A stretch of DNA of 64,000 nt, taken from Mytilus trossulus. Taxonomy: Eukaryota. The stretch covers positions 23,211,216 through 23,275,215 of the forward strand of contig NC_086385.1 in NCBI RefSeq assembly GCF_036588685.1, written 5' to 3'. Below are positions 10,431 through 37,463 of the stretch, piece after piece. Within the stretch, counting starts at the first letter, position 1, and each line of letters opens with the position of its first letter. A model generated the notes under the pieces. It had not been told where the DNA came from. It did no database searches and saw nothing but the letters and a program-made list of their open reading frames with translations. Made by a program: the position numbers and the translations under genes.

Positions 10431-10606
10431 AAGTCATGTGATTATATGTTTGAATTTGATTGGTCTACTTAACTTTGCGCCTAATTTTTCAATTTAAAAT
10501 CAAATCTGATTGGACCAGATTCTTTTCAAAGTCATGTGATTTATAAACTTTGAATTTGATTGGTTTGCTCATTTTTGCGCTTATATTCTTTCAATTTCAA
10601 ATCAAA
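10431..10606. promoter_or_regulatory. Putative bidirectional promoter between KolX and the Kolobok transposase
   Basis: The two ATGs (10391 and 10643) are head-to-head, 251 bp apart. A roughly 75-bp module is duplicated (10431 and 10529). ATTGG (CCAAT box) occurs at 10459, 10509 and 10559, with TTTGAA and TTTGCGC motifs nearby. Confidence 0.5.
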
Positions 10607-10642
10607 CACAGTATTTTGATCCTGTATACAACAAGTTTCAAG

Positions 10643-11768: not shown

Positions 11769-11846
11769 CAATCTCCGGCGCAGAGATCACATATCCGTTC
11801 CGTTCAATACTACGTAACACTACACTCAATATGACCTCTGCCATAC
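11769..11846 (+). repeat. AcademH left terminal inverted repeat
   Basis: The first 21 bp are the perfect reverse complement of 31621-31641; the match continues imperfectly to about 75 bp. Confidence 0.95.
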
Positions 11847-12155
11847 CTTTTTTTGCGTACTTTTTCTTCTCAATCTCTAAACAAAAATGAAATGCCTATG
11901 ATGACTTTTTTTATCAAAATTTAGCAATCAATCTTCAATTTTAAAAGAATAACAAAAGTTTTAATGAAATTTAATTAAAAAATTTATATTTATCAAATAA
12001 AAGCTGATTGTCGCACTTCTGTTATAGATTGTATTTCCTGTCAAATTATGTAAACAAAGTAGTCTGCAAAGGGATTATTTTTATTTCTGTAGCGATGTTT
12101 TTTATACATATTTCACTTTTTTTATGGATTTCTTCTTCAATTTAGATAATTTGAT

Positions 12156-15100
12156 ATGTCTTGCAATGCTTGTTATACCACAAATTCGTGGAGATTTCAT
12201 TCGTTGAAATCTGACCTTTTTTCTTTTTTCGACAAATTTACAAAGAATTTTGTATCAGTTTACATTCCAACTACCAAAAAACAAACATTGTGTAACTCCT
12301 GCTATTGTACGTTAAAGAAGTTGAAAGAGTGGAGTGAGAACATATACAGGTAACTCAAGTGCTTGAATTGTCTACATAATGAACATTTCCGTATACATGT
12401 ACACTAGTTATATTATACATAAATGTCTTTCATGAATTTGTAATCCATGACCATGTCTTATTAAATAATAATGATCTGGACCTCTGAAGTTAAAAGAAGT
12501 CTAATGAATAGCCCACAAAATTATTTTTTAATTTTTATCTAAAAAGCAAAATAAAAGGTGTAAAAAATATATATATAGTGCATGCAGTGGACCATGTTTG
12601 ACCAAGGAACTAGCCACTAAAGACTGTTATTTATCAGTAGCTATGCTATCTCTATTTAATATTGAACACAACATAGCTTGAGATAATTATTAATTATTCT
12701 TCAACTTGGTGTAACTGATATTCTTATAATCACATTCTTCGTAACATTGCAATTTTGCATGTTTGACAAACAGAACTTCTGATTTTCCTGACCAAAATTG
12801 AGTGGAGGTTTAAGTAAATTATATAGGTTAGCGATTTAGGCATTCCTAGCTATTTAAACAAGAACACAATTTTTTTTAAAGATTTAATTGTTTCTTCAAT
12901 TCTCTATGAAAAGATTGTGTAACTTATTGATGTTAATTTCTCCTTCCAGTTAAAATTGAAAGATACAAAAAATATTTATCATATGAATTACATGTACTTT
13001 ATCTGTTGATTTTCTTGTAGAACTGAGAGAATTAATACATTTAGTGATCATGCTGTGTTTCAGGAACAACATGTCAATCAATTGGTTACTGAAACAGGGT
13101 ATGTGTAGATAGTTGATGAATACGCATGAAATGTGGGGAAGGGTTCATGTCAACAATTCAGCTACCACTACACAAAAAAAAGACTTGAAAATACTAAAAT
13201 AAATATTATGAATATTAACAAACATTTATTGCACTTTTTGTACTTTTGACCTTTGTTTGATATTAGATAATTGGTCTCCATTGCCAATGATACACTAAGT
13301 GACATGATTGAAATCTTTTTGATTATTTAGCTGCTATTTAATATAAGACATAAATAAGACCTTTATTGATCTCAGTAGAATATTAAAGATAATATTATGT
13401 TGGGTAGCACTCAATGTAACAATATACAGTTGGACTATATAATTATTCAATTGTGAATATTGGTATATACTTATGTGCTTTCATCATGTTCATGTCATAT
13501 ACATTGCATAGTTCTAATTCTGATTTTAGAATTTCACCTGATCCACAGATAATTGATTGTTTAAGGAATGGTCACTTTGGTTCCATTGAGTAAGTAACTT
13601 ACCTTTATTATATATGTATACTGTGTGATTCATTAAATGCTAATTATTCATTTTATAAACATAGTACAGGTATAAGAGATTTTTTATTTAAATATTTCAA
13701 AATTTTAAAAGTTAAAACATTATAGGATATTTATTTAATTAAACCTTTTTGAATAATGAATGCACCTTTGCATTTTTTGTCATGTTTATTTCTAAGGCAT
13801 ATATATAGTGAAAGCTGTATAATGTATATATAATTACATATGCTATGGTTAAGATGGCTCTACTTACAAAATTCTACTTCGGCCAAATGAAAAAGTATGT
13901 GTGGTTCCAGTTACATCTGAAAAAAAGTTAGGGTAGGTAGTTAGGGATTTTTTTTTAATTTTATGGTTGTTTTTTTACATTGAGTCTATGGCATGTATGT
14001 GAGCAACATTCTGACTTTAATAGTGCTTAAAGAAAAATGACAATAAAATCTTTAGGGTAGGCTATTTTCAAGCCAAAAAAGTAGGGACGGTAGGGTTTCT
14101 GGAACCACACATATATTTTTATTTGGCCTTATAACAGGCTATAGTTTAAACTTGGAATAATTTTTAATAATGGCATTTGCATAATACAATGTGCATTTGA
14201 TTAATTTAGCTGTACAAATATATGTATCTAGTCAAGTGCTTGAAAATTTTGATAAATTCCATATTTATTTTGTACTATGATGTAAGAGAGTATTTTTCAA
14301 TAGAATGTACTGTGCCGCTCACAACAATATCTATACAAAATACAATGTATTAGAAGGGTTATGGACTGCTCAAAACAAATAAACAGAGAATTTATTCAAA
14401 AAGTAATACAATTATATTTGTTAGAAGTCTAGAACCTGGTCTATCACATACAGTTGGTCCAGCAGGGGATGCTGGCAGTATAGACAAATCAGAGTAAGTA
14501 ATTATCTGTAGGAACTTTAGAATAAGTGATGTCAACATATTTCATATTATATTAAAAGAAGATGTGGTATTATTGCCAATATGACATGTATGAGACAACT
14601 TTCCACAAGAGACAGATTGACACAAAAGAAATCACAGCTATACATGTAGGTCACTGTCAAGTCTTTAACAATGAGAAAAACTGTTATGGCATAGTCAGCT
14701 AAAAAAAGACAAAGTAATCACAAATGTAAACAATTCAATTGACAAAACTTATGGCCTAATCAAAGTGCAAAAAATAGATGAAAAACAATTATGGAGCACA
14801 GCAACAAACAGCCTCATTTAAATTACAGGATCTTGGCTTGGGACAGGAAAATTCAAACAGAATGTGGTTGGGTTGAAAATGTAACCAGGGACAGAGGTGT
14901 TACAGTACACAGTACATCATGAACATGACAAAAAAATATGGTCTACATGTCAATGAGATAGCTTCCGCCAATTAAAAAAATCATTTAGAAGCAATAGATC
15001 CATATCCTGTGACATACATAAATAACAAAGCTATTGAAACACCATTGTATATATGAATATGAACATGAATATAATATTATAGTTGATTGTTTAAAATGTA

Positions 15101-18100
15101 GTCTGAAAAGCAACCAACTTGCAAAAAAGTCCCAGGCACAAAGAATAATTGTAGGAAAAATGGAATTTTTATCATTTATGGGAATCTGAAGAAAAAAAAT
15201 ATCACCTATCATTTTGTACTTTTTTACATAATGTGAAATTACAATGAATTATGAGTATGCACATGTGGTTACATTCATATCAACAGTTTTATATAACTTT
15301 TTTCAGTATAAATGACACAGTTATTCCAGAGGAGGATTGCATACTATCATCAGGAGTAAAAAGATCTTTTACAGAGTATATATCATCTATATGTTTAGAT
15401 CACACTACAGCTCAGGTTGATTTTGCTTTGTCCACTCTTCCACAGTGTGAATTGGCACTGGGTGGGCAAATTCCAGCTTGTCCAGTCTGCCCACCAATAG
15501 GAGTGGGCATGTAATTTCTATTGATTAATCAAAAGACAATTTTTGCAAGTACAATCAATTGAAAAAAGCAGATAAGCATTTGTAAATAAGGAATATTAAA
15601 CAGTACTGTTATTAAAGAGTTGTCACCGTTAATTGTAGATTTGACGGTCACAAATGCAGTTTTATTGGCGACCGATATTTGCTGCCGTCAAATCAAAATT
15701 GATATTGGCAACTCTTCAACTACAGTACTGTTATTCTGGTTCTAATACATTTAAAAAATAAGATATGTAACAAGTTGAAAAAATGTATAAATTTGACATA
15801 CACAAAAAGTCAGCGAAACTTCATGAATATTTATGACCTATAAATGTCATTGATAAACGTGACGTCAAAGACTGTACATAATTTAAACTAGATCATTCAT
15901 GAGTTTGAATAAAGTTTATGCTTTCATAACTTTTAAATGCTTAGTATCTTGAAAATTTGATATGCAATAGTACTTCTATTTTTCAACATATATATCCTCA
16001 ACTCTCATACAAAATCTTGAAGACTTAAGTCAATGTCTATGAAATATCTTTTACTACCATTAAATGTTTATTTTTACAGTGACCATTCATATATCAACCA
16101 CAAAGGGCACAATACAAGTGATTCAAATGACCATGAATATTCCTGTAACTTGCACACAGAGGAGGATGAAGAAGATGATGAAGACGTCAATATTTTATGT
16201 CAGGATAGAATAAAACAAATATTAAAACTACTCAATTTAAAGAGTAATGCTGCATATGACTACCCAAGCATGTTAAGGACTTGTAGTCAGACAGATCTTA
16301 GCGAAAAAGACATCTTCATGAGCATTATTGAAGAAATGAAAACACGGTATTATTAACATCACTTCTAAAAATGATTTTTGATATGAAATATGGAGATTTT
16401 GCATGATTTTCAATGAAACTACTATATTGGTAGAGATAATTTGACTAAGATACAAACTACCTTCAACAATGAGCATAATCTTTACCTTTTAGCAAATGAA
16501 ATAAAATTTTTTATTAAAATACCAACAGTCTAATACATACATGACATACAACATCAATGATTCAAAATCACATGTGGCAGAAAAACAAAACAAATTTCAA
16601 TTGATTTATTCAGACAGATAGTTATAGAATTTTTAACATAAATATCTGCAAGAATAAATACTTCTTTGTAAGACATTATGCATTTAAACGTTATTTTCTT
16701 AAATAATGATTTCAAAAATTATTGTTCTTTTATCATGTTTGTCTCTGAATATTGAGGATGAAGATTGAATCATTATCTTTCTAGACCTGAAATCTATTTT
16801 GTGTACATACATTACCATTTAGAATACTACTTATTCAAATATTGAAATTCTTTGAACTTATATTTATTAATACATTTGTACTTAAATATTTAATATGAAT
16901 TCACTTGTATATTTGAATACCAATAGATGTCCACAACTGCTTGAAATACTGTTATCAGTATGTGTGAAGGATACGACAAAAGTTAATTTAAGGCAAATTA
17001 ACAGTGTTGCTGTTGCATATTCATCTCTAATGTTTGCTAGAAACAACAAAAACTCTGGTATACAAAGATGTATTACCCTGTTAGCTGTTAAAGGAGATGC
17101 AAATGATGAGGTACGAAAAAATCATGGTAATGTAATACAATATAGTTTGTATAAATGTCATATAACATACATTTTCTTCAGCAGGAGACCCAGTGATGAT
17201 TATTTAATGATAGGGGCTGATGTTATTGATGGAGTTTGGTTATTAAAGGTGGCACTTTGAAAATACAGCTGTTTCTCAAACCACACTTCTTTTGGGGAGA
17301 TCTAAAATATTCATAAAAAAATAATTGTGTTTACATACTGGTTCCCAGTTCTGATCTGTATGTTGCATCTAACAGAGACATATCTTGGGAATGTTACCAG
17401 TAAATATACATGTGCATATTGTTTATATTGAAATCTGTGGTAACCCTTCATTTGAGATACGGGGTAGCTAAGAAAATAAGTTTTACTTTAAAATCTGAGA
17501 AGTTCAAGGCATATAAACGTTGAAAATATGCCGCATACCGCTGTATTTCGACCTTTGAGATTAATTGAAGTGCATATGAACTTTAAATTCTTCGATAAGA
17601 TTTTTTTCAAAACTTCATAGTAAAAGTGTTACAGTTTTAGCCGCAAAAGGAGTTCCAACGGAAAATGCATTCTCAATATTTACAAAAATGCAACCTAAAT
17701 CTCAGTAAATTGAACAGCTTATGACTGGAATTGTACTCTATACCTAGATATTCTTAGATTTTATGATTTTTTACTGTTATGCCACTTGTTTTGCTCCCTC
17801 AATGCTAATTCATCTGTAACTATTACTGCTTATTGCCTAATCTTTCCCTTTTTGCTGTGTCTCAAAATATAAAATCTGTTTCTATATTCTATCACTAATG
17901 AAAGCAATGAATACAAATAGATTTTATGTTTTCCTTTAGGGCTGTTCCAAAAATAAATGTATGAGGGCACTTTTTATTTGACCCCACAATGCATGAATTT
18001 TTATTTGAAAATTTCCTTTAAATGGTAAAGTTATTAAACACTACCCATCAAATTGTATTTAAAGTGCCTTATGACCCCCATACAATTAATTCTGGAACAA

Positions 18101-21100
18101 CCCTTATTGTATACTGTAAATTCAGACATTGAACTGACTTATCCCATGAAAAAACAAATATGTGTCTAATTAGATTAATTATTGGAATTTCTATACAAGT
18201 TGATAATTATAGATATATGTACAGGATATAAGAAAACTAGTTATTTTTCTTTGATATATGGTTACCAAGTTGCATAAATCATAATCATTTCTGAATTTAC
18301 AGTATACTTTTGCTTCCCATTTAGGTTACAGCTTTACTTTCCTTTCACATTAACAAAATACATTATATGAAAGTCTGTATAAAATGGTAAATACACCTGC
18401 TGTATGTTGGTTCGAATCCAACTGCAGACAAAGCAATGTATCTTAGTATAGCTAGCTATTAACACTTAAACTGTGAAATCATTCTTATAAGCATTTTGGT
18501 ACTTTGGTAATATGAAAAATGTTATTCAATATAACATTTTCAAAATTCTTTTCCTATGATTCCATTTTAAAAAAAATGAATTCAATGAAAAATTACCTTT
18601 TATTATAAATTTACAATATTTCTGATTATCTGATTTTCAACTATTACTAATAAGGACAAATACATTTATTATTGATAAGAATGACTTCACAGTGCTTACT
18701 GCTATTTTTGGTGAAGGTGCATTATTAACTAGTTACAAATACATTAGTAATAATTGATAATGACAGCACTATTTCATACATGTTTTATTTTTAATTCTAT
18801 TTCATAGTTTATCAGAAGATTGAACAGGATGTCGTTAAGCCTTTCCTGTTCTGGAAAATTAAGAATTCTTGATAAGGCTGTACTTGCGTCACATAATATG
18901 CTGGTTGAAGCAATTCGTACAAACCCTTTAATGAAAATTACTGGGGATAACTTGGATATGTATATCAGAACAAACCACCAAAGGACAGACAATAGCAACC
19001 AGGATATACACTGGTTTGCCTCTAATGCATTTTTCACCAGACTTAATTACCAAAATCTTCCTGAAAACACACCAGAAGTTAGTCCAGTTTCTGTTGCTAA
19101 TTTTGTTAGCATGGTTCACTTGTTCTTAAATTAAGAATTTCTTTTTGAATTTGTTGAAAGCTGGAAGTATTATTTCTCATGGATTGTTATCTGATTATTG
19201 CTTTACATAGGCAGTAACTGTTTTAGTTTCCTTATCCAGCAATTAATTTAAAAAAAGAAAAATTCTATCCAAATCAATAATTATTTTTTTATGTAATCAT
19301 GACTTAAATTTAATCGGATACTGTGCTTTACAATATTATTCCTTTATTATAATCTATTGATTGATTAACAATTTACAAACAGTTAAGAAATGTAATTTTT
19401 TTATTCATACAAATTATCAGTCTGGAAATTAGGAAAATTAGTGTAATTGTAAGGTAGCATGCATTTATATATGTTTTACATTTTTTTACAACTTTAACTC
19501 ATAATTATTATTTTACACAACATGTTATTGAAGCCATTTTTGATGAGTTCTGTTTTTCACACTGATGTTTTCTTACAGGTGACATGTTCCAATTAGTGTT
19601 TGAGTCTTGTGATCATTATGTTCTTTTTTCTATTTAATGGGTTATCATATTTAAAAATTTGATTATTAAATTGTACTATTAAAGTGCAATTGAAAATATA
19701 TTTCAAGATTATAGTATATGGTGTAGGTGTAGTCCAGTTGATCTTGTCAATTTCAAGATGATTTTTTTACATTTTGGCTGTTCATGAATTATGGTACTAG
19801 ATGATTGGAAAATTGAATTCATTTGAAATTTTTATATTTTTCTTTCCCAGACTACCTTCAAACATTGTGCAAGTATAAATATCAATAAACTATGACTTTT
19901 TTTATAGGTTAGACTGAAAGACATAGATGCAGAAATGTTTGTATTAACTGGAGGGGAAACAATGAAGCTGAATGATGTAAAGAAGGTTTTGATAGGTCGT
20001 CTTCTATGTGACAGGGATGACTTTCAGTGGCTTAAAAATAAACTACCACAACATATACCACATCGGTACAACTTTAAATCTTAATATATGGGAAAAAAAA
20101 TTACAACTGTCCTCAATGGAATGGGTCTGAGTAGTACAAATGTGATTTCATTTTATGTTGTGAATTTATTTTGAACATATTTTTACATATTTTTCAGCAA
20201 ATCAAATGACTTTTGTTGTCCAGATAAATTTGGGATATAAATAAAATAAAATAAAGGATATGGTTAACTGACTTTACAGTATAAACTTTGCTCATGGTTG
20301 AAGGCTGACAGTGACCTTCATCTGAATATCTGTGTCAATTCATCTTTGGTGGACAGTTATCTCATTGGCCATCATCATACCACTTCTTCTTCAATTTTAT
20401 AAAAATAAGTTGCGACATATATAAAAACGAGAATCAAGTGATGAGAACTTATTTTGATCAGATTGCATCTTCTTTCATATAATGACACAAAACTGGTGTA
20501 TAACAAAACACAAAATGCAGTAGAATAAGGTTTTAATTGCTATTCTTCATTTCAAAATTAGTGATGACTTCAACATGAAGCAAATACTATCACCTAACTA
20601 CATCTATAATATCATATGGCTCCTAGCACTAGTTTGATTGGCTTTTATAAACATATTACATAAAAGAATTAAAGAAGTAACAGAAATATCATATCAATAT
20701 AGTACCTTATATTATATCGTAATACATGTATTTCATTTGGCATTTTTTAATTTTAAGATACAGTGACAGCATGTCAAAGAAACAGCATGTCTATACATTG
20801 AAAATAATGTTCAAGAATGAATCTAAAAATGAAGACTGTCTGGATATAATGGGCGAATACGAAGATCAAATAATTGATTTGCACACAAAGGCATATGGTA
20901 ATAAAGGCATTACAATGAAACCTGGCTAAACCAAATCCTACCTAAAACCGAAGACCTGTATAAACCAAAATTGTTCTGAAGCACGGTCATATCAAATTGT
21001 ATGCTTTCTTAATTCCTGTGGAGGTTCCTTTTTAAATAGGTTTCATTGTAGTATACCTTGCACACTGTTTATTACAGTTTTTCATATCTGATTTGGATTT

Positions 21101-24100
21101 CAGTATCCTTTCTATTATCATTTGCACTTTCACTTTCTTTCTTATATAAAAAAAAATGTTGCATTTGTTCATGATAGCCATCAAAATTCAATTGAAATTT
21201 AAAATGTTTTAATATTTTTAATATTCCTATTACAGGAAATACAGACAATTTAGATAAATATGGAGTAGTTTTAGGAGGAGATATGTTGACCAGGGAAAGA
21301 TTACAAAATGCTAAAAACATCACATATTTAGCTCCAACACCAAGGGGTAGATTTGAACATTTAGCCCCAGTCACTTGTGAACTTTGGCATGTGAAGCAAG
21401 ATCTTCTATCTGTATGTTTTATTGTATTCATACCTAGTCCCTTAAGCAATTTTGATATCACCAAGCATTCTGAGTGCAAGGACCATAACTCTCAACAAAT
21501 TTGTAACTTTATCTGTTACTTGTCATCATAAATCAAGATACCAAATTTCAAATCAATATCTTCAAGCTGTAAGAAAAATTGTGGAAAAACTTATTTGACC
21601 AAATGCAAAACTAAAGTCCATTTAAACTTTATGCTCATTTTGTTTCTTAAATTATGCACTGTACTGGCATCAATTTTCAAGTCTATTTTTTTTTATTTCA
21701 CCTAAGCGCATACCTAATATTGTATTAAAAGGATTTTAAAAAACAGAATTGAAGTTATTTTAACATTGTCTTTATGTCAATTTTTTAGAAAGCATATAAA
21801 GCCTTATATAAAATTGATTCATTGGGAGAGTGTGGAACTTTGTTTCACATGAAGACAGCATTAAGGAGGAATGATGTGAATGGAAATGTAAAGTCCAACT
21901 ACAAAGCCCATGAGGAACTATTTCTGCTGATTGTGAAAGCATTAATTCACGTAGCCTCAGATGAGATAAGGGATTGCAAAGAACAGAACAGAGACGTTGT
22001 CCTTAGTAATGTTTTTTCAAAAATTTATGGTTTGTATAAAATAATGATTTCCATATAATTATTTCATTGGTACGATAGCAAAACATGCAAAAGTTATTAG
22101 CATAAAGGGACAACCCGTGGTAAAATCTAGATATATTCAAGCCCCCATGAATTATTTCGATTCTAATAGGACAAATACGGCTACTTTTTTGGATCGAAGC
22201 GCCCTAGGTGGAGGCCATTATTTGCCGTTCCCATAAATTCACGCACTTTTAGATTGGCGTAAAAGAACGGAGCAAACAGAATAAGTGACATGCTCAAACT
22301 ATTCACAAAACTTATAAAGATAGATTTCGATGAATTTTAATGATAACTTACTTAAATATGCCTTCTATGTATAAAAAAAATGGGCTTATACCACATTTTT
22401 GCATCGTTTGTTTACGTTTCCTTGTTGTGATGATTTTCGGTATCAAAAGCGTGTATTTTCCCGTAAAATGCTTAAATTATAACGTCATCATTCTATGACG
22501 TCGGGTACTTCATTCATTAAAAAAACATATGACGTGGGAGTACGATCGGAACAGCCAATGCAATATATTCATATTTTACCACGGGTATGTACTCAAAGCG
22601 TTTGAAGGACGTCATGTTAGAATACTTTACATTTATGTTCATGGAATGTAAAGATTTCAAATTCTACCTGGTAAGAATTCTACTGACTGTGACAGAACCA
22701 TGAAATCAAGTATTACACATTCTCGGAAAATTGATTCCCAAGAAAAAAAGTTGAGTCTACACTATTTAGAATAACAAATTTAAAAATAAAAAACTGGAGG
22801 CTTTCCTATATAGATATAGGAAGATGTGGTGTGAGTGCCAATGAGACAACTCTCCATCCAAATAACAATTTAAAAAGTAAACCATTATAGGTTAAAGTAC
22901 GGCCTTCAACACGGAGCCTTGGCTCACACCGAACAAAAAGCTAAAAAGGGCCCCAAAATTACTAGTGTAAAACCATTCAAACGGGAAAACCAACGGTCTA
23001 ATCTATATAAACAAAATGAGAAACGAGAAACACGTATATATTACATAAACAAACAACAACTACTGTACATCAGATTCCTGACTTAGGACAGGTGCAAAAT
23101 GTACACCTAATGACCAAGCTAAATAAATTGTAGGAATGACCTGGCAGATATACATAATATATGAAAACCTATTGGTTACCTTCTGCTGTTGTCTGTTCTA
23201 TGGTAGGGTTGATGTCTCTTTTACACATTCCCAATTTTCATTCTCAATTTTATATGAAGAAGATGAATGGTTACAATTTATAAAACTGTTTGTGGATGCA
23301 AATGAATATAAACAGTTATTTTTTAGGTCTAGGATACAGCACAGATGATTACATTTACAACTACTTCACAAATTTAATAACCTGGGGTATTCAAATAATT
23401 AACATGAATGACACAGCAAAGGAAGGGGACATGGAGAGACTTATAATGAATATGAAGGAAAATGCAGCCTTTTTTTTACAGCCACTCAGTAATGAGCAAA
23501 TATTTTTCTGAGTGCGTTAACACCATCTTACAAGTACAGCACCTATCATCCCCTCATATGAAAATGAGACAGCTAGAAGGGGCATTCATTAATACCAAAG
23601 GAGGTTCTGGTAAAAACAAAGAAGCAGACCTGGTGCAGGAGCATGCCATTAGAAATCAGAAGGACTTAATAAGAGGTTTAGGTAAGAAACATAGACTTAG
23701 CCTCCAATCACCCAAGTATTGTTACTGTAATTGTACTTCTGTATAAAAGTTTCCTGTTGGAATTATCTCCCTTATACCATTGACCTAACTTAAAAAAGGA
23801 GTTGCTTCATATTCTTAATTAATTTATTATTTTTAAACAGTTTCAAATTTAATATCTAAATATATGGGATCCATATTGTCTTAATGATTGAATTTGTATA
23901 TAACTATTTGTAACAACACACAATCAGGATAAATTTGTAAGGTGGGGTGATGTGAACCTGATAATTTTTCGCTACATTGAAGACCTGTTGGTGACCTTCT
24001 GCTGTTGTTTTTTTATTTGGTTGGGTTGTTGTCATTCCCCATTTCCATTCTCAATTTTATCATATTATACAATTGCACACTATGAATCTAATATTGCTTA

Positions 24101-24592
24101 CGGCCAATTAAATCTATTAAAAAGGGCTAATATATTACTTTCATTACTGTACTAAACAGTAAGATATTGGGAGTAATACATTCAGACAAAAGCTTGAACA
24201 GTTTCATAATATAAAGAAAACATCAGTCACATCTGTATTACTTATTGATCTTAAAGTTGAATATAATTTTTATTAATGTAGGAGCAAATAAAACTGAAAA
24301 TGGTTCCAGGAGAGCTAGCAGCTCAGCAGACATCATCCATCGAATAGGAGACAATGTAGACCATCTTCTTGGTATACCTAAATTCACATCAAGCCATGCC
24401 AAGAAAACGTCATCTAAAGATCTGGAAATTGCTATAAACATTTTAAGTAAAGTTCAGCCATTTAAATATGTTAAGGGTAGGAAATTTGAAAGTTTTAAAA
24501 CAATACAAAAAAATCCAAAACTAATTGTTCAAAGGAAAGATCTAATACATGCCATCCATAAAAAAATTCAGAGGTTATTTTTAAATTCATAA
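12156..24592 (+). CDS. Academ (DUF6589-like) DDE transposase, 14 exons, about 907 aa; one +1 frameshift in a T8 run
   Basis: Phase-consistent GT-AG exons: 12156-12349, 13021-13098, 13512-13589, 14425-14493, 15307-15510, 16080-16346, 16927-17110, 18808-19077, 19908-20065, 20758-20897, 21236-21411, 21789-22029, 23327-23681, 24282-24592. Motifs: N-terminal CxxC..CxxC, ITGDNLD, GGDMLTRER, ELWH, KEGD, SKY, NTKGGSGKNKEADLVQEH, LGANKT. One extra T at 23470-23477. Exons 2-5 are less certain. Confidence 0.82.
13881..14128. mobile_element. MITE in transposase intron 3
   Basis: Imperfect TIRs of about 28 bp: GGCCAAATGAAAAAGTATGTGTGGTTCC and GGAACCACACATATATTTTTATTTGGCC. Confidence 0.7.
17936..18106. 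mobile_element. MITE in transposase intron 7
   Basis: Imperfect TIRs of about 30 bp: TAGGGCTGTTCCAAAAATAAATGTATGAGGG and CCCCCATACAATTAATTCTGGAACAACCCTTA. Confidence 0.65.
18373..18430 (+). ncRNA. tRNA-like structure, copy 1 (58 nt), transposase intron 7
   Basis: Acceptor-like stem GTCTGTA/TGCAGAC, a stemless D-like loop containing TGGTA, a 5-bp arm ATACA/TGTAT with a 5-nt loop, and a T-arm GTTGG-TTCGAAT-CCAAC. Confidence 0.6.
22807..23100. repeat. Abundant SINE-like interspersed repeat
   Basis: ATAGATATAGGAAGATGTGGTGTGAGTGCCAATGAGACAACTCTCC...ACTAGTGTAAAACCATTCAAACGGGAAAA is nearly identical to 34271-34453. Related copies lie near 14555, 42335 and 55790. Confidence 0.75.
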
Positions 24593-24959
24593 TTTTTTCT
24601 ATAGTGTGTTTATAGTTTCATAGAAAATCAGGTGCCTATATCTACTGAACTTTGTGTTTCTATTAAAAAAAAAATTAGAATAACTTATTTACTGAATGTC
24701 AATAGCATATAAGTCATAACCATTAATTTTTCAATGCATGTAAATTTCTCTCCACTAATATTGAAAATGAAATGAAGGTAAAAGCAATTTTCAGTTAATT
24801 TTACTTACACATTACAATAATTTAATGTTATTTTTGAAACTAGATATATGCCGAAACAGTGGTCTAAAATACCAATAAACATTATGTAAATGTTACTGAT
24901 GATTATACTGGTGCTATTTTTACCTTAAAATCAATCATTACTATAAAATATTGGGGATT

Positions 24960-25830
24960 GAAGAAACAACTTCATTGTTGTTTTATAGATTTTAAAAGTG
25001 TTTTTGACAACTTGAATACATTTTTTTTATATCATAAACTTGCTAAATGTGGTATTAGTGTAAGTTTTTTTCCATTATTAAATCTTTCTATGATATTTCA
25101 ATGACCTGTGGGAAATTTAAAGGTGAATTTTCTAATATATTTTCTGTAGAAAAAAGAGTATTACAAGGGGAATCATTATCAACCATACTATTTTTTTTTT
25201 TTTTATGATTTTGAATATTAGTTTATTTTATAGCTTATTTCTGTTTTACCAGTAGACACGAAATAGCTGTCATTGTTTATATTGATGTTTGTTATATTTT
25301 CTGAGAGTATTGATGGGTTGTAAAATATGTTGAGTATTCATAATGTATCAGATAGAAAAATAAAAAAAAATCAGTTAGAATTTTGTAAATATATTTATAC
25401 TATTAAGAAATCCCCTGCTACAGCAATGGTTTATTCTGAGTTGGAAAGATTTCCTTTACTTATATGTTAATCAGTAAAAATATCCAAATATTGGATTTGT
25501 CTATTACGAGTCTGAATCAGGAAATATGTCATCATGGGTTACTAATGTTAAACCTATGTTGCTTAGCCAAGGTTTTGGGCATGTATGGTATGCACAGAAT
25601 TTTGAATGCGAAGAAGCATTTTTTATTCAAACTAAGGTTTATTGACCAAAAGGGAAATATGCTTTTCGATTCATCATCAAAATGAACGATCTATAAATAT
25701 GAAGTGGATAACTGTTTAACTGACATTTTTTTCACAAATAAGTTAAGTCCACAATGTATCAGATTTTTAACTAAATATAGTCATTTCCTAAGGGGAGGTA
25801 AATTAGTTCCCAATGTTTTGTATCAATTAG
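24960..25830 (+). pseudogene. Highly degraded LINE (RT) remnant between the AcademH genes
   Basis: 25156-25192 reads RVLQGESLSTILF (RT motif QGxxLSPxLF); a later segment reads AMVYSELERFPL. Many stops and deletions. Boundaries are approximate. Confidence 0.5.
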
Positions 25831-27420
25831 AATTGACATTCTAAAAAAGTTGAGTGTAAATTCTTCTTCAATAGATCAGGAATGGCTAATATCTGCATTG
25901 TTAATAAAATTATAGTGAGCTATGTTTATAATTTATTATTATTATTTAATGTGTCTCTCCATGTCCCTTTCTTGTGTAATTTTAATCTGTACGGTGTGAA
26001 CCATATTCTTTCATTGAGGCCTTTTTTGTAAAAGAAATACCTAATTTTGATCCCTGCATGTAATATAGTTCAAAAATATATAAAATTGTTATTTCCTATA
26101 AATCTACCTACAGTTTATTATTTTAATGCTATTATGTGTTTATGCATTTGTTGTTCAAGATTCATTGATTGTAATAACAAATGAAATTTTAAAATTTATT
26201 CAAATGTTGGTCTGCTATATTTATCAGTCTATTATTATTCTATTATTTACACTTTGAGAAAAGCGCAAAAAGAATTGGAAGGCAAGAAGATGAAAAAAAA
26301 GATGAATTGATAGAAAAAGATTTTTTTTAGAAAAAAAATATGTAATATATATATTTAAATATTTTAACAGTGACTTACGTTGAATCGCATTTACACTAAA
26401 AAAAATATTGTGATTGCCTTCATTTAATGGTTTAAAGCAACTACATCTCATATAAAAAAAATTGGAATGGAAAAATACATCCTTGATAATTGTTATATGT
26501 TAATATATAATTCTTTCAGTGAAAGAAAAGATTTACATTGACTGTGATATTTTTATTCATTATTGATTATGAAATAAACTGTGATATAAACTGTGATATT
26601 GACTTGTAATGTATGTTTAATGAACAAAAAAAGAAATCCTCCCAGAATATTTTTAGTCATCAAATCTGGGTTTCTTTTTATTTGTAATTATATGAATTAT
26701 ATAAGTGAAAATTTTTGATTAAATCAAATGTATAGTCTTAAAAATTAATTTGAATGACTTCTTCTGAAAAGGGATCATATTAGAAGTTGAAATGAAGGTA
26801 TAAGTATGTTATTACAAGTTGAAGCAAACTGTAATCTTTTTTTTAATCAGAAGTTTTGAGAAACATTAGTTTGTGCCAAGGATTATTAAATTGATTTTTG
26901 CTATGATTTATTGTTCATTACTATTTTTAAAATGATGCATGAAATTATTTCTTTGGGTGCAGATGAACTGTTATGAAAACCTTTTTTAGGGTAGCAAAAG
27001 GGTTTTAAGATTAAAATTACTTAAACTAGAACAATAAAGTAATATTAATGTATTGAAATGAAAACCAAAATGTTATCATTGGATTTTTATTTCACTCAAA
27101 CTAGTATGTCTTGTATACATAAATAGATTATTTATAAGCTATTAAACCTGTGCACTGAATGGTTAAAGCATAACTATCTCCAAGAAATGAACTTTTATCA
27201 TTATTTATTTGATATTTAAAAAAAAAAAAAATTTGAAATCAATTGTAGGTTTTGAATACATTGTCTCCTAATATTATGATTAAATGCTGTACTTATATGC
27301 TTTTTGTATTACTTGAAAATAGAATAAAATTTGTATATGAAAAACGATTTTTTATTTCTATTCCAAAGTTTTGAAATTAGGATTGGGATGGGGGTTGAAG
27401 TTTGAAGGGTTATTGCCTAT

Positions 27421-30400
27421 TTACAATTCCATTCTCAACATCTCACATTCAATACAGGAACATATTGGTTTACAGTTGTTACAGCAGATATGACCCTTTA
27501 CATCTGTTTTTTCAAAGCCATACTGCTGTAGTAGGTATTCTCGAATGCAACCCTTTTCCCTACAAAAACCAATAATATCAGGCTTGATATCAACTACATT
27601 AGCAGCAATATCCCTATTGCTGTAATAAAGAACAGCATTGGCTGCATTCCCTGAACGACCAGCACGCCCAATCTCTTGGACATAATCTGACAGTGATCTT
27701 GGTGGACGTGCATGGATGACTCTCATAATTGATTGAGAATTAAACCCCATACCCACAACTGAGGTGCAAAACACAAGTTTTATCCTTGGGTTTACACAAG
27801 CCAACTCTTTAATTATATAATTTTTTACACTGTCATCCTGACCACTGCAGAGAACACCGTATACAGATGTTTCAAGGGTAGGTTTCTTGAATATATGTTT
27901 GCAGTAGGCAGCTGCATTGCCTATATACTGTAATGGCATAAATAACAAAGTAACTGGAAAAGTTTCCCTATTTTCAAACAAACTGTCACAAAGTGGCCTA
28001 TATATATTTTCATAGGACTCATAAATATCTAGGGATGCCTCTTTAAGTTTGATTTCCAGTAAAATGTTTTCCCTATCAGGACTTTCCTTAATAACTTTTG
28101 GATTTTTTATCCCTAAAGAACTAGTAACCGCCTTCTCTTCTTGTTTCGTGACAGTGGCACTAAGTCCCAATCTGGGTACTCCTGGAAAAAATCCTGGAAG
28201 CTCTTTCAGGTGTTCAAAAGCTTTCCTGAAGGATCTCCCCCTATTCATAAAAAAAGAAGTAATGATCATGCATTTTGATAATAACCATTTAATAAATAAA
28301 GTTAAATACACCACCACCAAATAAAAGGGATATAAGCAATATGAAATCATTTTTCCCAATAAAACTCTGATTTTATTAAATATGGTGTTAAAATTTGTGT
28401 TCTGTATTTGTTACAATTTTTGTTATCTACATGAAATAAATTTGAAAGAAAACCAATGAATCTAATAATCCAAGAATGAATAATATGATATTATTCATTC
28501 TTGGATTATTATTAATATCTATTATATTTCAAAAACAATACAGGTCACAGATAATTGGAAAAAATGCATTCACAGTGGAATGTTAATAGCTGAAATAATA
28601 TACATTGTTTGTCCGCAGTTGGAATTGAACCAACATACAGCAAAGTGTATTACCCTATAGATACAGACTTCTTTATAATGTATGTTGTTAGTAAGGGTGA
28701 GATAAAATGTAAATAAAAAATTAAGATAAAAGCATTAATTACTAAATGTTAACAAAAAGCTTTAAAAAACCACATTAAAAGCTTATACTAGCTGCATTAT
28801 AGAAGTTGACAGTGGATGAAAACAGGAAATTTAACCAGAAGCTAAAACATGTAAAATGCAGATATGCACTGAAAATAAATTAATAAAAAATAGGTCACCC
28901 AAGATCAATTTTACTTATTGTTAAGTTAAAAAAATGTCTTGCTACATGTTGCAGATAAATTCCATTAGGCCAACTGTAAGGAGTTTTGCTAGAAGTAATA
29001 AATATACAAAAAACATATACATTACTGGTAAGTCTTAACATTAGAAATGGAAATACATACCTTGCTTTCTCTTTTATACTTACATTATCTGTTTAAAACA
29101 TTTCAAACAGTATCAGTAAAATCTGATTCATGTCAAAATGTGAACTTTAAATCAATGGTAATATAAAAAAACAAAAACAACAAAATATTATTGAGGTTAT
29201 ATAAGTAATATTGATTTTTAAAATTGAAAAAAAAAAATGCCAGATCTTGAGAACAAGTTACAAATTTGATAAGAAAGGTGATAAGCCAGACTTTACTTTC
29301 AAAGAAATGACCAATGCTTGATAAAATATATAAACTATGTTAATCATTGACCAATATACAGGGTAACACACAACCAGGACAAAAGCTTAAAGAATTACGT
29401 TTAAATTGTTTTATAAAGTGTAATAGATGTCCATTAATGTCACCTAAAAAGTATGGAATGTTACCAGTATTTATTTATATATTCAATACATTTTGCTATT
29501 GTCCAGCAGAAAAAAGTTGTCAAACTGAATCTGAAATTAAAATACAACTAGAGCTGAAACGTACCAATCTGCAACTTTATGACATTCGTCAATAAAAATT
29601 GCCTTCACTGAAGATTTGAAACTACAAGAAATATAAAGTAAGAAAAACATGGAATTTTACTATTGACTGTTTTGGCCACTTGAATGTATTTTAAATGCAC
29701 ACATAACGTTGTTCTAAATTCATATTAAGATCAAAATTCTCAGTTCCATTATCATTATTTGTTGGCAAAATTTAACACGAATTTTCTGTAAATGGTTTTC
29801 AGAAAAAAAATGTGAAAAACTAAACTCTAAGGGATTGCTTAATTTTAACCAGACTGCAAAACCAACATTCCATTTTTATAGCATTATTGCTTTAAAGAAC
29901 AATTTAACATGGGAAAGAAGTGATGCATAAGTCAAAAATCTTTTTTTTTTAATTTCTTGATTATTTTTTCTATATATAATTAATACATGCATATAAATAG
30001 TTTAATACCTAGAGGAATCCAAGATATCATTTCCTTCTGAAGTACAGAAGAAGGCTTCTGGATGAGCAAATATTAAGTTACAATTGGATATATCTGAAGT
30101 ATCTATATCACACTTAAGATCTTGGATATTTTCCTCATTCCCTGCAGTCAACAGTCTTCCCTGTGGAATAAAGGAGCACAGTTAAACTATGTAAAACTAC
30201 CTACCAAGAATTATTAGATACTGAAACAGAAGAAATTAAATACATGTGTAGCCATCAATCAAGAATCATGATTTATGAATCTAGATTTTATCAAATTCAT
30301 GCCCCATTCAATGAATCAGAAACTACTTCTTGACGAAACCAAATACTTTTGAACATATGATACATGTACATGTAACTACAAGATTTAGAACAACCTTATA

Positions 30401-31485
30401 TATATATATGCATGTATATGTATAACCTGCAGTTGACAACTTGAAATATTAAGTACAGTATTTGAGTAAAAAAAAAAATTAACAGGTGAGCCATGCATAA
30501 GCATGTAACTGGTACCAGATTAACATGAATATCTCAAAGTCTTCAAATATCAGTTAACTTTAATTTGGTATGTTAGTAAAACTGTTTCGTCCCGGCCAAG
30601 GGTACTCATCAGGTGCCTTAAGGCTACCACTACAGTCATCTGTTACATATACATTTTTTTTAACTAATTATAAGAACAAATGGTATTAGTTAGTGATCAT
30701 CTCTTTGCACTCATATTCTGAAATATTTCACTTAAGAGATCTTTTAGACCTTAAAAAAAATATTTGAGGTGTTCATAAGGGTCTGTGGAGTTCAAAAAGT
30801 GGGGTGTTATAGACGTTTCTTTTCTGTTATCTGTAGATATTTGGACTCTTAGTCTTCTAATTTGTTGAATTAATAATTGGAATATTATAAATAAGTACCA
30901 ATTTAAACGATAAAAGTCAAAATAATAAACTTTTTTGGTGTTCGGTGGTGTGCGGTGGTGAAAAGACCTACCGGTTTATTTTGGCACCTTCTGCAGGAAA
31001 GAAAAAACTGGAAAGCAAAATCTAGTAAAGTTTTTAAAATTTCTGAAACGTTTACTTTAAAATAACTTTTATATATCTGCCATGCCTTAAAACTTTCCTA
31101 GATGTACCAGTTTCTCTACTCAAATAGTAAATTTTTAGGGGTAAACACGGCCATATTTTTAAATTCCTTATGATGAACCTGAAGAATAAGAGTAGATTTT
31201 TACCCTGGTATTTAATATACAACATTTCAGTGCTTCTGAGTTCTTCAACTGTTTTACTTGCTCTTCTTGGATGACACTGAGAGGTGAAAAAACAATCACA
31301 GTGCCGTCCAAGATTAGCGGAGCCAGTTGGTATATGAGGCTCTTTCCATAACCAGTTGGCAAAATCGCTACTGTTTCAAGTGTTCCTTTTCTGATTTCGT
31401 CCAACACTTCAATTTGTTTAGGTTTCAGTAGTATGTTAGGATGACCAAGTCCAAGACGTCTAAGCGGGATTTCGTAATCCGCCAT
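27421..31485 (-). CDS. RecQ-like SF2 helicase of AcademH, 4 exons, 436 aa, intact
   Basis: Exons 31485-31204, 30160-30009, 29621-29565 and 28240-27421 splice in frame (1311 nt). Motifs: LPTGYGKS, SPLSVI, AHPE, FIDECH, WGRSFR, LSAT, CTSVVGMG, YVQEIGRAGR, and a C-terminal CIR...CCNNC Zn-binding segment. Confidence 0.92.
28463..28511. repeat. Perfect 24-bp inverted repeat with 1-nt spacer
   Basis: TAATAATCCAAGAATGAATAATAT-G-ATATTATTCATTCTTGGATTATTA. Confidence 0.95.
28610..28668 (-). ncRNA. tRNA-like structure, copy 2 (59 nt), helicase intron 3
   Basis: The minus strand reads GTCTGTA TCTATAGGGTA ATACA CTTTGC TGTAT GTTGG TTCAATT CCAAC TGCGGAC A. The stems match copy 1; differences fall in loops or give a G-U pair. 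Confidence 0.6.
30581..30636 (-). ncRNA. Type III hammerhead ribozyme in helicase intron 1
   Basis: The minus strand reads ACTGT-A GTGGTAGCCTTAAGGCAC CTGATGA GTACCC-TTGGCC-GGGAC GAA-ACAGT. It has a complete CUGANGA/GAAA core, a GUA cleavage triplet, closed stems I and II, and an open stem III (ACUGU/ACAGU). Confidence 0.8.
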
Positions 31486-31566
31486 TTTTTACAAATAGCC
31501 CTTTCACCGCCTTAGATACTTCCGCTTGTCCGCCATGAGGAAATTTCCTCATGGAGTCAGCCAATC

Positions 31567-31641
31567 GTATGGCAGAGGTCATATTAAGTGTAGTATTGCG
31601 GAGCACGTAAGGAACGGATATGATCTCTGCGCCGGAGATTG
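31567..31641 (-). repeat. AcademH right terminal inverted repeat
   Basis: Reverse complement of the left TIR, followed directly by the TSD ATGGTAATG. Confidence 0.95.
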
Positions 31642-32222
31642 ATGGTAATGCTGCTCAACTAGTGCTCTTGCTTGACTCCATTGTGGACCATTACAAACAA
31701 GACCATAGAAACTGTCATCAAACATCTAGATACAAAAAAAATGACTATGTGCCGTCGCGAGATATTATTCGGGATCCAACAGCCGAGTTGTTGCTAAGGA
31801 ACAGTATAAAAAACCTTTATATTTATAAGCATCCAGAAAAGTATACTCATTGTCGTGACACTCATTATATTGAGAGTTATCATAATACAATTCTCATACA
31901 TGTGGATAAAAGGTTACATTATCATAATTTAATGTATGAAATTAAGTTGGGACTATCAATACTTGATTGGAATGAACATGTTGATAGACCTGCTTCATCA
32001 GTACAACACCGTGTGCAACATGACCATCCACGTCGACAATCTGGATATCGGGTTTTGACACCAAAACAATATACTTTTACAGATGAATTATGGAATAACT
32101 TTGTAAATCTGTTAAATCATGACCGCAATGACCAAATTGAGCCCGATGATGTTGAAAATGTTCAAATAGACCAAAATGATACAATTGGTAGTGAATATGA
32201 AGATTCAGATGATGATGAGTAA
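31642..32222 (+). pseudogene. Kolobok-type DDE transposase, 3' part
   Basis: Continues the 5' part in frame once AcademH is removed: GNAAQLVLLLDSIVDHY..DH..CH...RDTHYIESYH (catalytic E)...DKRLHY...LSILDWNEHVDR, ending in an acidic tail. Confidence 0.8.
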
Positions 32223-34144: not shown

Positions 34145-34958
34145 AATTAGTAAAGGCATTTTTTTATGTAAAAAATGGTGAATTAAATCTGGTATTTAGC
34201 TAATTTTACCACTGTAAATAAGAAGCTATAACAGACGCATACACGAAGATCAGAAGGATTTTGTGGCATTAATAGATATAGGAAGATGTGGTGTGAGTGC
34301 CAACGAGACAACTCTCCATCCAAATAACAATTTTAAAAAAGTAAACCATTATAGGTCAATGTACGGCCTTCAACACGGAGCCTTGGCTCACACCGAACAA
34401 CAAACTATAAAGGGCCCCCAAATTACTAGTGTAAAACCATTCAAACGGGAAAATTTTCTAAAGGGAACTGTGACTGAACAATTTTGTTTGATTTTAACAA
34501 TTATTGAAAATCCTTCCAATCAATAAATTCGTTGTATATTACGTATATCCTTAATACGTGCTAACAGTTTGTGTCTTGGGTTAAGTTTTTTTTAGTTGAG
34601 ACTGGCTTTGAAAAAGAGGGAAGTAACTGCAAGTATTCTTAAATAAATATTCGTGTTTTGTGCTTTTGACATTTTACTTATTTATACAGAGTTCGTACTT
34701 ATATTAATTAATCAATACATCACTTGTATTTAAATTTCATATCATGATTGTTTTGTTTATTTGTTAATTGATACATTAGGTTAATAAAATACATCATGCA
34801 CATAGCTTTAAATTTTTTTTTTTTTTTCATTTTTTCAGTAATGAATTTTCAATTTTATTAGATTACACATTACTGTAGGTGTTTCTATTATATATTTGTG
34901 ACTGTCCTTTCGTTGTACACTGATTTGTTTTTGATTCATTTAAATAATATATATATTG

Positions 34959-37024
34959 CAGTGGTTGTCATGGATAAATCTGCCTATATTAAAGAGGCTG
35001 AACGACAACTTGGCGATGCAAGGTTCTACCAAAAACTAGACTCTGATCCTACAACATCTTTTAGCAGAGAAATTACTGTTAGTTTGGTAGAAATGCATGA
35101 CGATGGTTTCATCGATGACAAAACTCTTGAATATTTGAAACCAGAAAATCCAAAACCGGGCAGATTTTATCTTTTACCTAAAATTCATAAGGCCAATAAC
35201 CCAGGAAGACCTATAGTTTCAGCGAACGGTCATCCGACGGAAAAAAATATCGGAATTTGTTGACTTCCATCTTCGTCAACATGTTGAAGACTTACCATCT
35301 CACATCAAAGATACAACCGATTATCTAAGAAAAATGCAGGCCTTAAATCCACTCCCCTCCGACACGACTCTTGTTTCCATGGATGTCACCTCCCTCTACA
35401 CTAATATTCCACATGCAGATGGCATCGATGCATGTAAAGAAGTTTGGAATTCCAGACCAGTGAAATAGCCTGGTCAAAATGTTCACGCTGGTACTTAAAA
35501 AAAAAACAACTTCACTTTTGATGGAGATCATTATTTGCAAGTAAATGGAACTGCCATGGGCACCAAAATGGCTCCGTCATATGCCAACATATTTATGGGC
35601 AAATTAGAGAAACAACTCCTTGAAACTTCCATCGAAAAACCGCTTTCCTGGTTTAGATTTATAGATGATGTGGATATGGAATGGAATAAAAGCAACGAGG
35701 ATTTAGATACTGTTATCACTCATGCCAACAACATACATCCTAGTATCAAATTTACTCATGAGAAGTCTAAATCCAAAATCGCCTTCCTCGATACTTCAAG
35801 TTCGCTCACAGAAGGCATCATATCTACAGATTTTTATTCTAAACCTACTGACACTGATCAATATTTGTCCCCTAAAAGTTGCCATCCTGCTCATCTTACC
35901 AAGAGCATCCCATACAGTCAGGCACTTAGAGTCAAGCGAATATGTTCCAACACAGAAACAACTAAAAGACAACTACGTCAACTTGAAACTCGCTTGAAGA
36001 AAAGGGGCTACAAACACAGAAATATCAAAAAAAGCTTTCAGAAAGCGGAGTCAATTCCGAGGAGTGAACGTTTGGAATATAAAGTTAAAAAGAAAAATAA
36101 AAGGACTCCATGTGTTCTTACTTACCACCCATCTCTCAAAAACAGCTTTGGTGTCATTCATGAGCATTGGAAATCAGTTGAAAAGAATTCCAAACTATCC
36201 AATATTTTTCCCGAGCCTCCAATGATAGCTTTTAGGCAACCTAGTAGTCTGCGGAACCTGCTGGTGCGGGCTGAAGTGTCTGATAATAGAAGTACTTCTG
36301 GAGAATGTCGTTCGTGTGAGGAAAAATGCTGCAAATGCTGCCTACAGATGCAGCATTCATCAACATTTCACAGTAAGGCAACCGAAAACAACTATAAGAT
36401 ATTTTGCAATGTTACCTGCAAAAGTATGAATGTTATTTACATACTAGAATGTTCGGTTTGTGGCCTCCAATATGTTGGTGAGTCAGAGCAGCCTTTCCAC
36501 AAACGCCTCAATGGCCATGGGAGTGATATCTCTAAGAAGCCACTTCTCCCAGTTTCTCAGCACTTCAGACAGTCGGGTCACGAACCTGATGACTTTAACC
36601 GCATGAAAATTCTAGTGATTGAACAGAACATTCACTGGAGTGATGCCCAGTGACAGGTTCGGGAAAGCTTTTGGATAAAGGAACTTAATGTACATCATCC
36701 AAACGGCATCAATAAGAAATACTAACGGTTTTGTTTTTCACTCATTTTTATTGTTAATATACACAGTCACGTATATTGAATTATAGTGTTTTGTTTTTAT
36801 TATTATATTCAGGATTTTGGATTAAAATCAATCGACCAAAAACTTACCTGTATTATTACCGATCTATTTTTACACCTTATACATTATGTATCAGTATTGT
36901 TAAAACTTGTGACACTTGAAGAAGGCCATTTGTTGAGCCGAAATATTTGTCAACACGATGTAATAACAACATTTTCGTATTATAACATCTTATATCAGTA
37001 CCGATGTGCAAATCTTTAGACTAA
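34959..37024 (+). mobile_element. 5'-truncated Penelope-like element (RT plus GIY-YIG endonuclease), disrupted
   Basis: Coding remnant 34959-36725: FYLLPKIHK...[51 protein letters not shown], CxxC..CxCC and NVIYILEC..CGLQYVGES (GIY-YIG). It has frameshifts near 35245 and 35500 and stops. Both ends are flanked by TAAT(AT)nTG. Confidence 0.9.
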
Positions 37025-37463
37025 TATATATATATTGGGTTGATGTTTAGACGAGTTGTATATATATTATTACACAGCCATGTATCACCATCATGGCGAT
37101 CCGATGGATACATCTGTTGTAGAGTTGTCACTGACTCCGACGTACTTATAAATATAATTATTTTCTGTGACTGTATATTACATTAATTTGTAGGATCCTT
37201 TACTATAGATAATTTAGCTGATCTGTAACAATAACATCTTCATGCCTTATATATCATGTACTGTAGTACGCCGCTAGATTAAAACTGACGAGGAAAGGTA
37301 ACACACGGCCAGCGGAAGCTCTTTTTTTTAGTCTAAATATTTGCACATCGGTACTGATATAAGATGTTATAATACGAAAATGTTGTTATCAAATCGTGTT
37401 GACAAATATTTCGGCTCAACAAATGGCCTTCTTCAAGTGTCACAAGTTTTAACAATACTGATA
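36889..37463. repeat. About 136-bp inverted repeat (Penelope pLTR-like end duplicated in inverted orientation)
   Basis: 36889-37024 is the near-perfect reverse complement of 37328-37463, with a spacer of about 300 bp. It includes a hammerhead-like variant CTTGAAGA-AGGC...GCC-GAAA. Confidence 0.85.

Follow-up and report, generated by a model that had tools for sequence, protein, structure and literature searches.

A duplicated intronic RNA module with a tRNA-like core in both genes of an AcademH-like transposon of Mytilus

The window analysed here is a 64-kb stretch of AT-rich eukaryotic DNA from the mussel Mytilus. It contains a DNA transposon with terminal inverted repeats (TIRs) and a flanking 9-bp target site duplication (TSD), and the two genes of this element, a transposase on the forward strand and a helicase on the reverse strand, are convergent (Table 1). 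Matches above the cut-off to PF00270, PF00271 and PF20231 identified a superfamily II helicase together with an Academ-type transposase; the latter carries DUF6589, which we take to be the Academ transposase domain. Target duplications of AcademH elements are reported to be 9 or 10 bp (PMC10045372). The 19,873-bp element, with its TIRs, 9-bp duplication and gene content, fits an AcademH-like transposon. Its helicase shared 98% identity with a protein of Mytilus galloprovincialis and 87% with one of M. coruscus, and all 12 of the matches obtained with a transposase exon as query came from Mytilus species. Compared with its homologues P0065 and P0071, the transposase has a frameshift at a run of T near 23470, which reflects either decay or an assembly error. 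Because the transposase of this element copy is frameshifted, the present function of the module described below is uncertain.

The element itself sits inside a Mutator-like transposase ORF (10547-11890 and 31611-32222; PF20700, E = 0.0016, below the cut-off), which is adjoined by a convergent cysteine-rich ORF on the reverse strand (9616-10182); we presume that this layout resembles that of Kolobok elements. Elsewhere in the window we noted frameshifted pieces of a Penelope-like reverse transcriptase with a GIY-YIG domain (34862-36653, forward strand), an inverted repeat at 36889-37463 (136 nt, 98% complementary, arms 303 nt apart), and a near-identical duplication (51475-53130 and 61527-63182, spaced by 10,052 bp) that contains 499-bp tandem units and a GACG-type microsatellite.

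Table 1. Positions in the window of the transposon, its genes and introns, and the predicted parts of the two module copies.
Feature	Position	Strand	Remarks
AcademH-like DNA transposon	11769-31641	.	19,873 bp (19.9 kb); TIRs and 9-bp TSD
TIRs	11769-11846 and 31567-31641		86% alike over 78 columns
RecQ-like helicase gene	27421..31485	-	four exons; Pfam DEAD and Helicase_C
DUF6589 transposase gene	13504..24592	+	multi-exon
Helicase intron with copy 2	28241..29564	-	1324 nt, GT..AG, phase 2, before last exon
Transposase intron with copy 1	17111..18807	+	1697 nt, GT..AG, phase 0
Whole module, copy 2	28311..28700	-	390 nt; RNAalifold, pair counts, shuffles
Whole module, copy 1	18341..18717	+	377 nt; RNAalifold, pair counts, shuffles
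tRNA mimic, copy 2	28610..28668	-	core 28668-28611, 58 nt; discriminator A at 28610
tRNA mimic, copy 1	18373..18430	+	core 18373-18429, 57 nt; Rfam RF00005 and fold
Predicted outer helix, copy 2	28700-28688 with 28320-28311	-	10 bp, 3-nt bulge
Predicted outer helix, copy 1	18341-18353 with 18708-18717	+	
Leader-trailer helix, copy 2	28600..28683: 28683-28677 with 28606-28600	-	7 invariant pairs
Leader-trailer helix, copy 1	18358-18364 with 18435-18441	+	
Invariant 10-nt linker block with TAAC motif	28581..28590	-	only other occurrence in the window at 18455-18464
Long helix E/F, copy 2	28340..28576: 28576-28554 with 28360-28340	-	pair probability 0.98
Long helix E/F, copy 1	18470..18693: 18470-18488 with 18675-18693	+	18/19 complementary; pair probability 0.97
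Branch-point candidate TTAAC, copy 2	28301..28305	-	just 3' of module; 62 nt before 3' splice site
Branch-point candidate TTAAC, copy 1	18725-18729	+	80 nt before 3' splice site

Each gene carries one copy of a tRNA-like sequence, here called the mimic, for which the preliminary description implied a role as a transcript end. Such a role is not supported. Homologous proteins are continuous across both sites, and each mimic is therefore intronic. Thus, the homologue P0063 bridges the transposase intron, its residue 227 ending at 17110 and residue 228 starting at 18808, and the homologue P0003 bridges the helicase intron by joining DECHKVADW to GKSF. The cuts proposed at 28668/28669 and 18372/18373 are still predicted RNase P sites, but cutting there would sever an intron rather than finish an mRNA. 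The same description had each copy in the sense of its own gene and the genes convergent, and both statements were confirmed. The distance from the core to the 3' splice site is 378 nt in copy 1 and 370 nt in copy 2, and that to the 5' splice site is 1262 and 896 nt, respectively. One RNA-like contig ends at 28239, 1 base off the helicase exon start, which is no more than a weak hint; a single raw RNA run yielded 8 reads, all less than 90% alike, of which not one mapped to the module, and revealed neither joints nor ends.

Both module-bearing introns begin with GTACG, a sequence absent from the other donor sites examined; a shared origin or a common requirement is possible. At the other end, the TTAAC found 3' of each module copy is a candidate branch point. 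The transposase intron also contains three inverted-repeat stretches 5' of copy 1 (17864-17932, 17938-18104 and 18109-18307), two of them MITE-like.

An alignment of the two copies spanned 137 columns with 78% identity (E = 5e-24), and no other match in the window was strong. Copy 2 consists of a 7-bp acceptor stem, an 11-nt D-like loop with GG, a 5-bp middle arm and a T arm. The tRNA features present in the mimic comprise the 7-bp acceptor with G1-C72, U8, the D-loop GG, a 5-bp T stem, a TTCRANY loop (here TTCRANT) and the discriminator A. The anticodon arm is absent, 17 positions of the Rfam tRNA model (RF00005) being replaced by 6-7 nt. This model matched both cores exactly from end to end, at 28.7 bits in copy 1 and 23.6 bits in copy 2, both below its cut-off of 29 bits. 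ARAGORN called no tRNA at either core, and an Rfam scan at the gathering threshold was also empty. Given the missing anticodon arm, the scores below the cut-off and the negative ARAGORN result, we rejected identity as canonical tRNA genes. Weak antisense matches of both cores to RF04354 ('Plastid-ycf2 5UTR') are explained by the consensus of that family, which reads like a tRNA in reverse complement. Protein searches with chance translations of the core returned nothing or, in total, 3 matches judged to be chance. The folding energy of the cores was equalled by 5/200 and 0/200 dinucleotide shuffles.

Differences between the copies avoid the stems: a single change affects the 34 stem positions, compared with 10 changes (9 substitutions and 1 indel) at 24 loop positions (Fisher p = 0.0003, with stems defined on the two compared sequences themselves). 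The one stem change, A to G, keeps a U-G pair, and the T-loops read TTCGAAT and TTCAATT. On all of these points the preliminary description proved accurate. It had also described the flanks as more diverged than the stems, which needs a correction: the flanks contain conserved blocks (18/22 positions in the leader and 39/55 in the trailer) that exceed the loops in conservation, and homology comes back about 200 nt further 3'. This second shared block was the best non-self match among 2130 windows, and the alignment of the downstream block from strand F of helix E/F to TTAAC was matched by none of 1000 shuffles. No alignment between the copies was found for the insert between E and F (726/1000 shuffles as good), the 200 nt upstream (982/1000) or the 5' ends of the introns (210/1000), nor do the last 60-80 nt before the 3' splice site align.

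The conserved parts define a module of about 380 nt. In the RNAalifold consensus of the two copies, the cloverleaf sits on the internal loop of a 7-bp leader-trailer helix, and next to the predicted cut sites 8 nt of the leader and 4-5 nt of the trailer remain single-stranded. Further 3', E/F forms a 15-bp helix with 3 two-sided changes between copies 1 and 2, and encloses an unalignable variable insert of about 180 nt. A pair count was made on 49 of the 62 predicted pairs, the 13 within the unalignable insert being left out. All 49 were retained in both copies, 5 of them through two-sided and 5 through one-sided changes, compared with 33-48% pairing in a control with slid partners. The consensus energy was -37.4, as against -11.2 +/- 3.3 for 150 column shuffles (0/150 as low), and the antisense strand reached -21.7. 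Neither the module without its core nor the E-to-G part was equalled by any of 200 shuffles, and the outer helix alone was weak (9/400 as low). The number of two-sided changes in an unconstrained consensus was matched by 58/150 shuffles and is thus not above chance; moreover, the structure was derived from, and scored on, the same two sequences.

Several other identities and properties were considered for the module. At the cut-off, Rfam held no family for the whole of it, and a ribozyme, an RNase P RNA and a snoRNA were rejected by inspection. Exclusive pairing of each 5' half with the 3' half of its own copy was also discarded, since cross-pairing between copy 2 and copy 1 was as good or nearly so. 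The variable insert of copy 2 includes a near-perfect AT-rich palindrome of 49 nt (28463-28511), where Rfam microRNA matches were dismissed as products of the palindrome with scores far below the cut-offs. This palindrome is not conserved, because a diverged contig from DNA run X8 skips 32 nt of it.

We consider it likely that the module is a selected, sense-strand RNA structure. Selection on RNA structure had been suggested from the cores, and it is supported by long-range helices with two-sided changes, by the bias towards the sense strand and by conserved blocks around an unalignable middle. This support applies to the module as a whole; the core taken alone has no two-sided change.

Single-sequence folding was used to compare alternative structures. 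When the core was folded alone, the acceptor stem had a probability of ~0.75 and ~0.97 in the two copies, and the middle arm was weak. With 25-nt flanks added, an extended T hairpin beat the cloverleaf (0.64 to 0.35), a second CTGTA in the middle arm being able to capture the 3' strand of the acceptor. Across the whole module the acceptor was predicted at 0.01-0.11, the outer helix at 0-0.22 and the leader-trailer helix at 0-0.10, such that by energy only the T arm and E/F were stable. In both copies the 3' strand of the outer helix preferred a local hairpin over the TTAAC branch-point candidate, an unexceptional structure (19/200 and 5/200 shuffles). The folding model may miss a tertiary elbow or bound proteins, the module may be a switch, or the cloverleaf may rarely form.

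Searches of the 64 kb with nhmmer and a covariance model found no third copy of the module. DNA contigs were compared over 27400-30300, that is, around copy 2. In run X1 the summed contig depth, which is not a copy number, was 56.5 in the core bin, 30.2 and 40.8 in its neighbours and 22.2 in unique intron, with a peak of 139 elsewhere, a pattern that suggests an island of a few related sequences. In run X8 it was 22.5 on the core, within a range of 4-33. Compared with copy 2, the diverged X8 contig showed 14 differences over 101 positions of the variable insert and 10 over 168 positions of the conserved part, which also had 10 gap letters (p = 0.045, substitutions only). Both DNA runs carry a change at 28355 by which U-A replaces a U-G pair of helix E/F. 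In the X8 contig two T of the same helix are missing at 28563, and the contig does not reach the partner strand.

A metagenome scan recovered two distant, decayed relatives of the helicase (L110 and L111; 44-46% identity) with an intron at the same codon. The mimic was absent from both, in about 450 nt of intron each (L110 1-450 and L111 1-448); in L110 a TACTAAC precedes the splice site by about 130 nt. Against viral contigs, the helicase gave distant RecQ-like matches only (23-31% identity) or none, the T-arm pattern hit 29 unrelated stretches, several of which overlap called phage tRNAs (18/29 scanned), and the F-block pattern had 0 matches. Genome contigs gave 0 matches by protein and 0 by pattern. 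The module may be confined to the Mytilus lineage studied.

What might such a module do? Our preferred reading, to which we assign a probability of roughly 0.4, is that it would act in cis as a gate on both pre-mRNAs, its mimic being cut by host RNase P and RNase Z. The reading builds on what the sequences show: the module is duplicated, both copies are intronic and in sense at the same distance from the 3' splice site, the mimic resembles a tRNA, and pairing has been retained. When folded as a cloverleaf, the mimic would be excised by the two enzymes, severing the intron and releasing a 58-nt small RNA as a by-product. The extended T hairpin, predicted to compete with the cloverleaf, would not be a substrate, and a second predicted competition sets the outer helix against the local hairpin over the branch-point candidate. 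The balance between folds would then set the fraction of pre-mRNA cut before splicing, and cutting would limit transposase and helicase output together. The leader-trailer and outer helices would clamp the cut ends and might permit the splicing of some severed introns. A stronger version, in which every pre-mRNA is cut by RNase P and RNase Z, the halves are clamped by the helices and the exons are spliced across the break, strikes us as improbable.

RNase P is reported to read the acceptor-T stack (PMC10424219). We favour the gate because the mimic keeps precisely this stack, drops the anticodon arm and has unpaired bases next to both predicted cut sites. As described for the 58-nt mascRNA, RNase P can cut Pol II transcripts even at internal sites, and an unprotected product decays (PMC13622603); the MALAT1 leader likewise pairs with the trailer (PMC8457004). 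The presence of one copy per gene agrees with action in cis. Against the gate stand the low single-sequence probabilities of the acceptor, outer and leader-trailer helices and the success of the extended hairpin once flanks are included. Only two copies were compared, and their cores lack a two-sided change; the mimic is missing from the roughly 450 nt of intron covered in both distant helicase relatives, the transposase of this copy is frameshifted, and human intronic look-alikes of mitochondrial tRNAs are reported to stay uncut (PMC7722341).

This last precedent leads to the main rival, which we regard as possible but not likely. Here the mimic would remain uncut, and a tRNA-binding or STAR-family protein on the mimic or on TAAC would direct splicing either to the regular 3' splice site or to a poison micro-exon within the mimic. 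TAAC motifs lie 455, 346 and 80 nt (copy 1) and 448, 343 and 62 nt (copy 2) from the 3' splice site, the first of them about 20 nt before an AG at the core start, and donor-like GTAA and GTATGT occur inside the core; the resulting exons of 13-32 nt would be frame-shifting. Consistent with such a switch, the 3' strand of the outer helix can form its hairpin over the last TTAAC in both copies, and GTACG at the start of both introns is unlike the other donors. There are precedents in the nimtRNAs, which are described as uncut, as enhancing splicing and as binding KHDRBS1 (PMC7722341), and in P5SM (named in PMC12218528). However, a pyrimidine tract is lacking at the cryptic acceptor, by the shuffles given above the local hairpin is ordinary, its partner strand is not conserved (330/1000), and nimtRNAs are reported to be most effective near the 5' splice site (PMC7722341). 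A switch without cutting would also leave unexplained why the exact RNase P/Z geometry was retained.

A mobile relic and a trans-acting intronic RNA come next. In the former, both introns would carry a low-copy non-autonomous element, or its remains, with a SINE-like B box and a MITE-like inverted repeat, the structure being inherited from an active ancestor. The T arm indeed matches a B box perfectly, six consecutive T occur 47 nt after the core of copy 2, E/F is shaped like a terminal inverted repeat, and the transposase intron harbours other MITE-like repeats. Nevertheless, we judge this origin unlikely. The 64 kb hold no third copy, and the summed contig depth on the core is modest. The alignments reveal neither a tail nor a target duplication, and the tRNA head is not at the 5' boundary, since homology and pairing begin about 30 nt upstream of the core. 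The first T-run after the core of copy 1 comes only at 65 nt. Additionally, folding is better on the sense strand, both genes have the same spacing to the splice site, and three conserved motifs had 0 matches in a curated bivalve SINE file (PMC10294476).

If the intron instead encoded the module as a stable RNA, released from the lariat by trimming in the manner of a snoRNA, the module could act in trans, for example as a transposition cofactor. A predicted terminal helix closes the module 90 and 70 nt short of the 3' splice site, and the invariant single-stranded block might serve as a binding site for a protein or a target. Intronic snoRNAs typically lie 70-90 nt before the 3' splice site, as the module ends do. 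Inspection found no C/D or H/ACA boxes, though, and no Rfam snoRNA match came near the cut-off; the terminal helix is weak, and action in trans needs no copy in each gene, which leads us to rate this alternative as distinctly unlikely.

The line taken in the preliminary description, namely MALAT1-style 3' end formation giving stable truncated transcripts that end in the intron, appears very unlikely. The size of the mimic and the leader-trailer pairing are mascRNA-like, but the 150 nt upstream contain neither an A-rich tract nor paired U-rich ENE motifs, and one half of the conserved module, linked to the following splice site, is situated 3' of the cut. Finally, neutral duplication of intron DNA with a structure arising by chance would suit the mere two copies and the two-sided change count within the shuffle range, but is scarcely credible in view of stems identical at 33 of 34 positions beside an unalignable middle and a consensus energy below every shuffle.

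In their arm lengths, the mussel mimic and mascRNA or menRNA are, we presume, near-identical. At 57 and 58 nt, the mimic has the size and the tRNA-like fold with a short middle arm that characterise mascRNA, although the predicted probability of the middle arm is low. The RNAs of MALAT1 and NEAT1 are likewise described as about 58 nt long and tRNA-like, with a shortened anticodon-equivalent arm (PMC13622603; bioRxiv 10.64898/2026.01.19.700226), and mascRNA also lies within a Pol II transcript, in which leader and trailer of MALAT1 pair (PMC8457004). In contrast to mascRNA, the mussel mimic is intronic and belongs to protein-coding transposon genes of a mollusc, rather than forming the 3' end of a long noncoding RNA; reports of MALAT1 are confined to jawed vertebrates (PMC10869381). 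The mimic is also without an ENE or A-rich tract in the 150 nt inspected upstream of each core, its leader-trailer helix is separated from the acceptor stem by an internal loop instead of being contiguous with it, and it is embedded in a closed domain of 380 nt. The Rfam mascRNA model was not among the matches listed at E up to 10 for either core. The mimic is not a member of the mascRNA family, but if cut it would work like a mimic of the mascRNA type.

With the nimtRNAs (Hoser 2020, PMC7722341) the mimic shares a cloverleaf in an intron and perhaps an influence on how the host pre-mRNA is spliced. The nimtRNAs are described as unprocessed, full cloverleaves that originate from mitochondrial insertions and work best near the 5' splice site (PMC7722341), whereas in the mussel mimic the T-loop is of the nuclear type, the anticodon arm is absent and the spacing from the 3' splice site is fixed. 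Among plant systems, P5SM is a pre-mRNA mimic of a housekeeping RNA and CPIR-1 an intronic tRNA-like sequence (PMC12218528); both are reported from plant host genes, unlike the mussel module, which is duplicated across two transposon genes. With respect to the carrier, the mussel element shares a helicase, a transposase, TIRs and a 9-bp TSD with AcademH. The DNA transposons of this type are reportedly the subject of Kojima 2020. A structured intronic RNA is not mentioned in the AcademH literature covered (PMC10045372).

Cellular tRNA mimics are described as few in animals, with two counted in humans (PMC10424219). In the full-text literature, outside Kojima 2020, the original CPIR-1 and P5SM papers and uncut repeat libraries, we found no tRNA mimic in a DNA transposon or in Mytilus introns. 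Judged by the sequences of the two copies compared, the feature is genuine and represents a variant of the tRNA mimic not yet described in the literature covered. Its presence in both genes, as a module probably under structural selection, points to a hitherto unrecognised layer of post-transcriptional control for cut-and-paste transposons. If the stronger version of the gate were correct, transposase and helicase output would be tied to the host tRNA machinery, a mascRNA-like RNA would exist outside vertebrates, and tRNA-processing enzymes would create a discontinuous spliceosomal intron. The module is a small, directly testable candidate substrate for RNase P and RNase Z, and raises the question of whether a cut intron with base-paired ends can be spliced.
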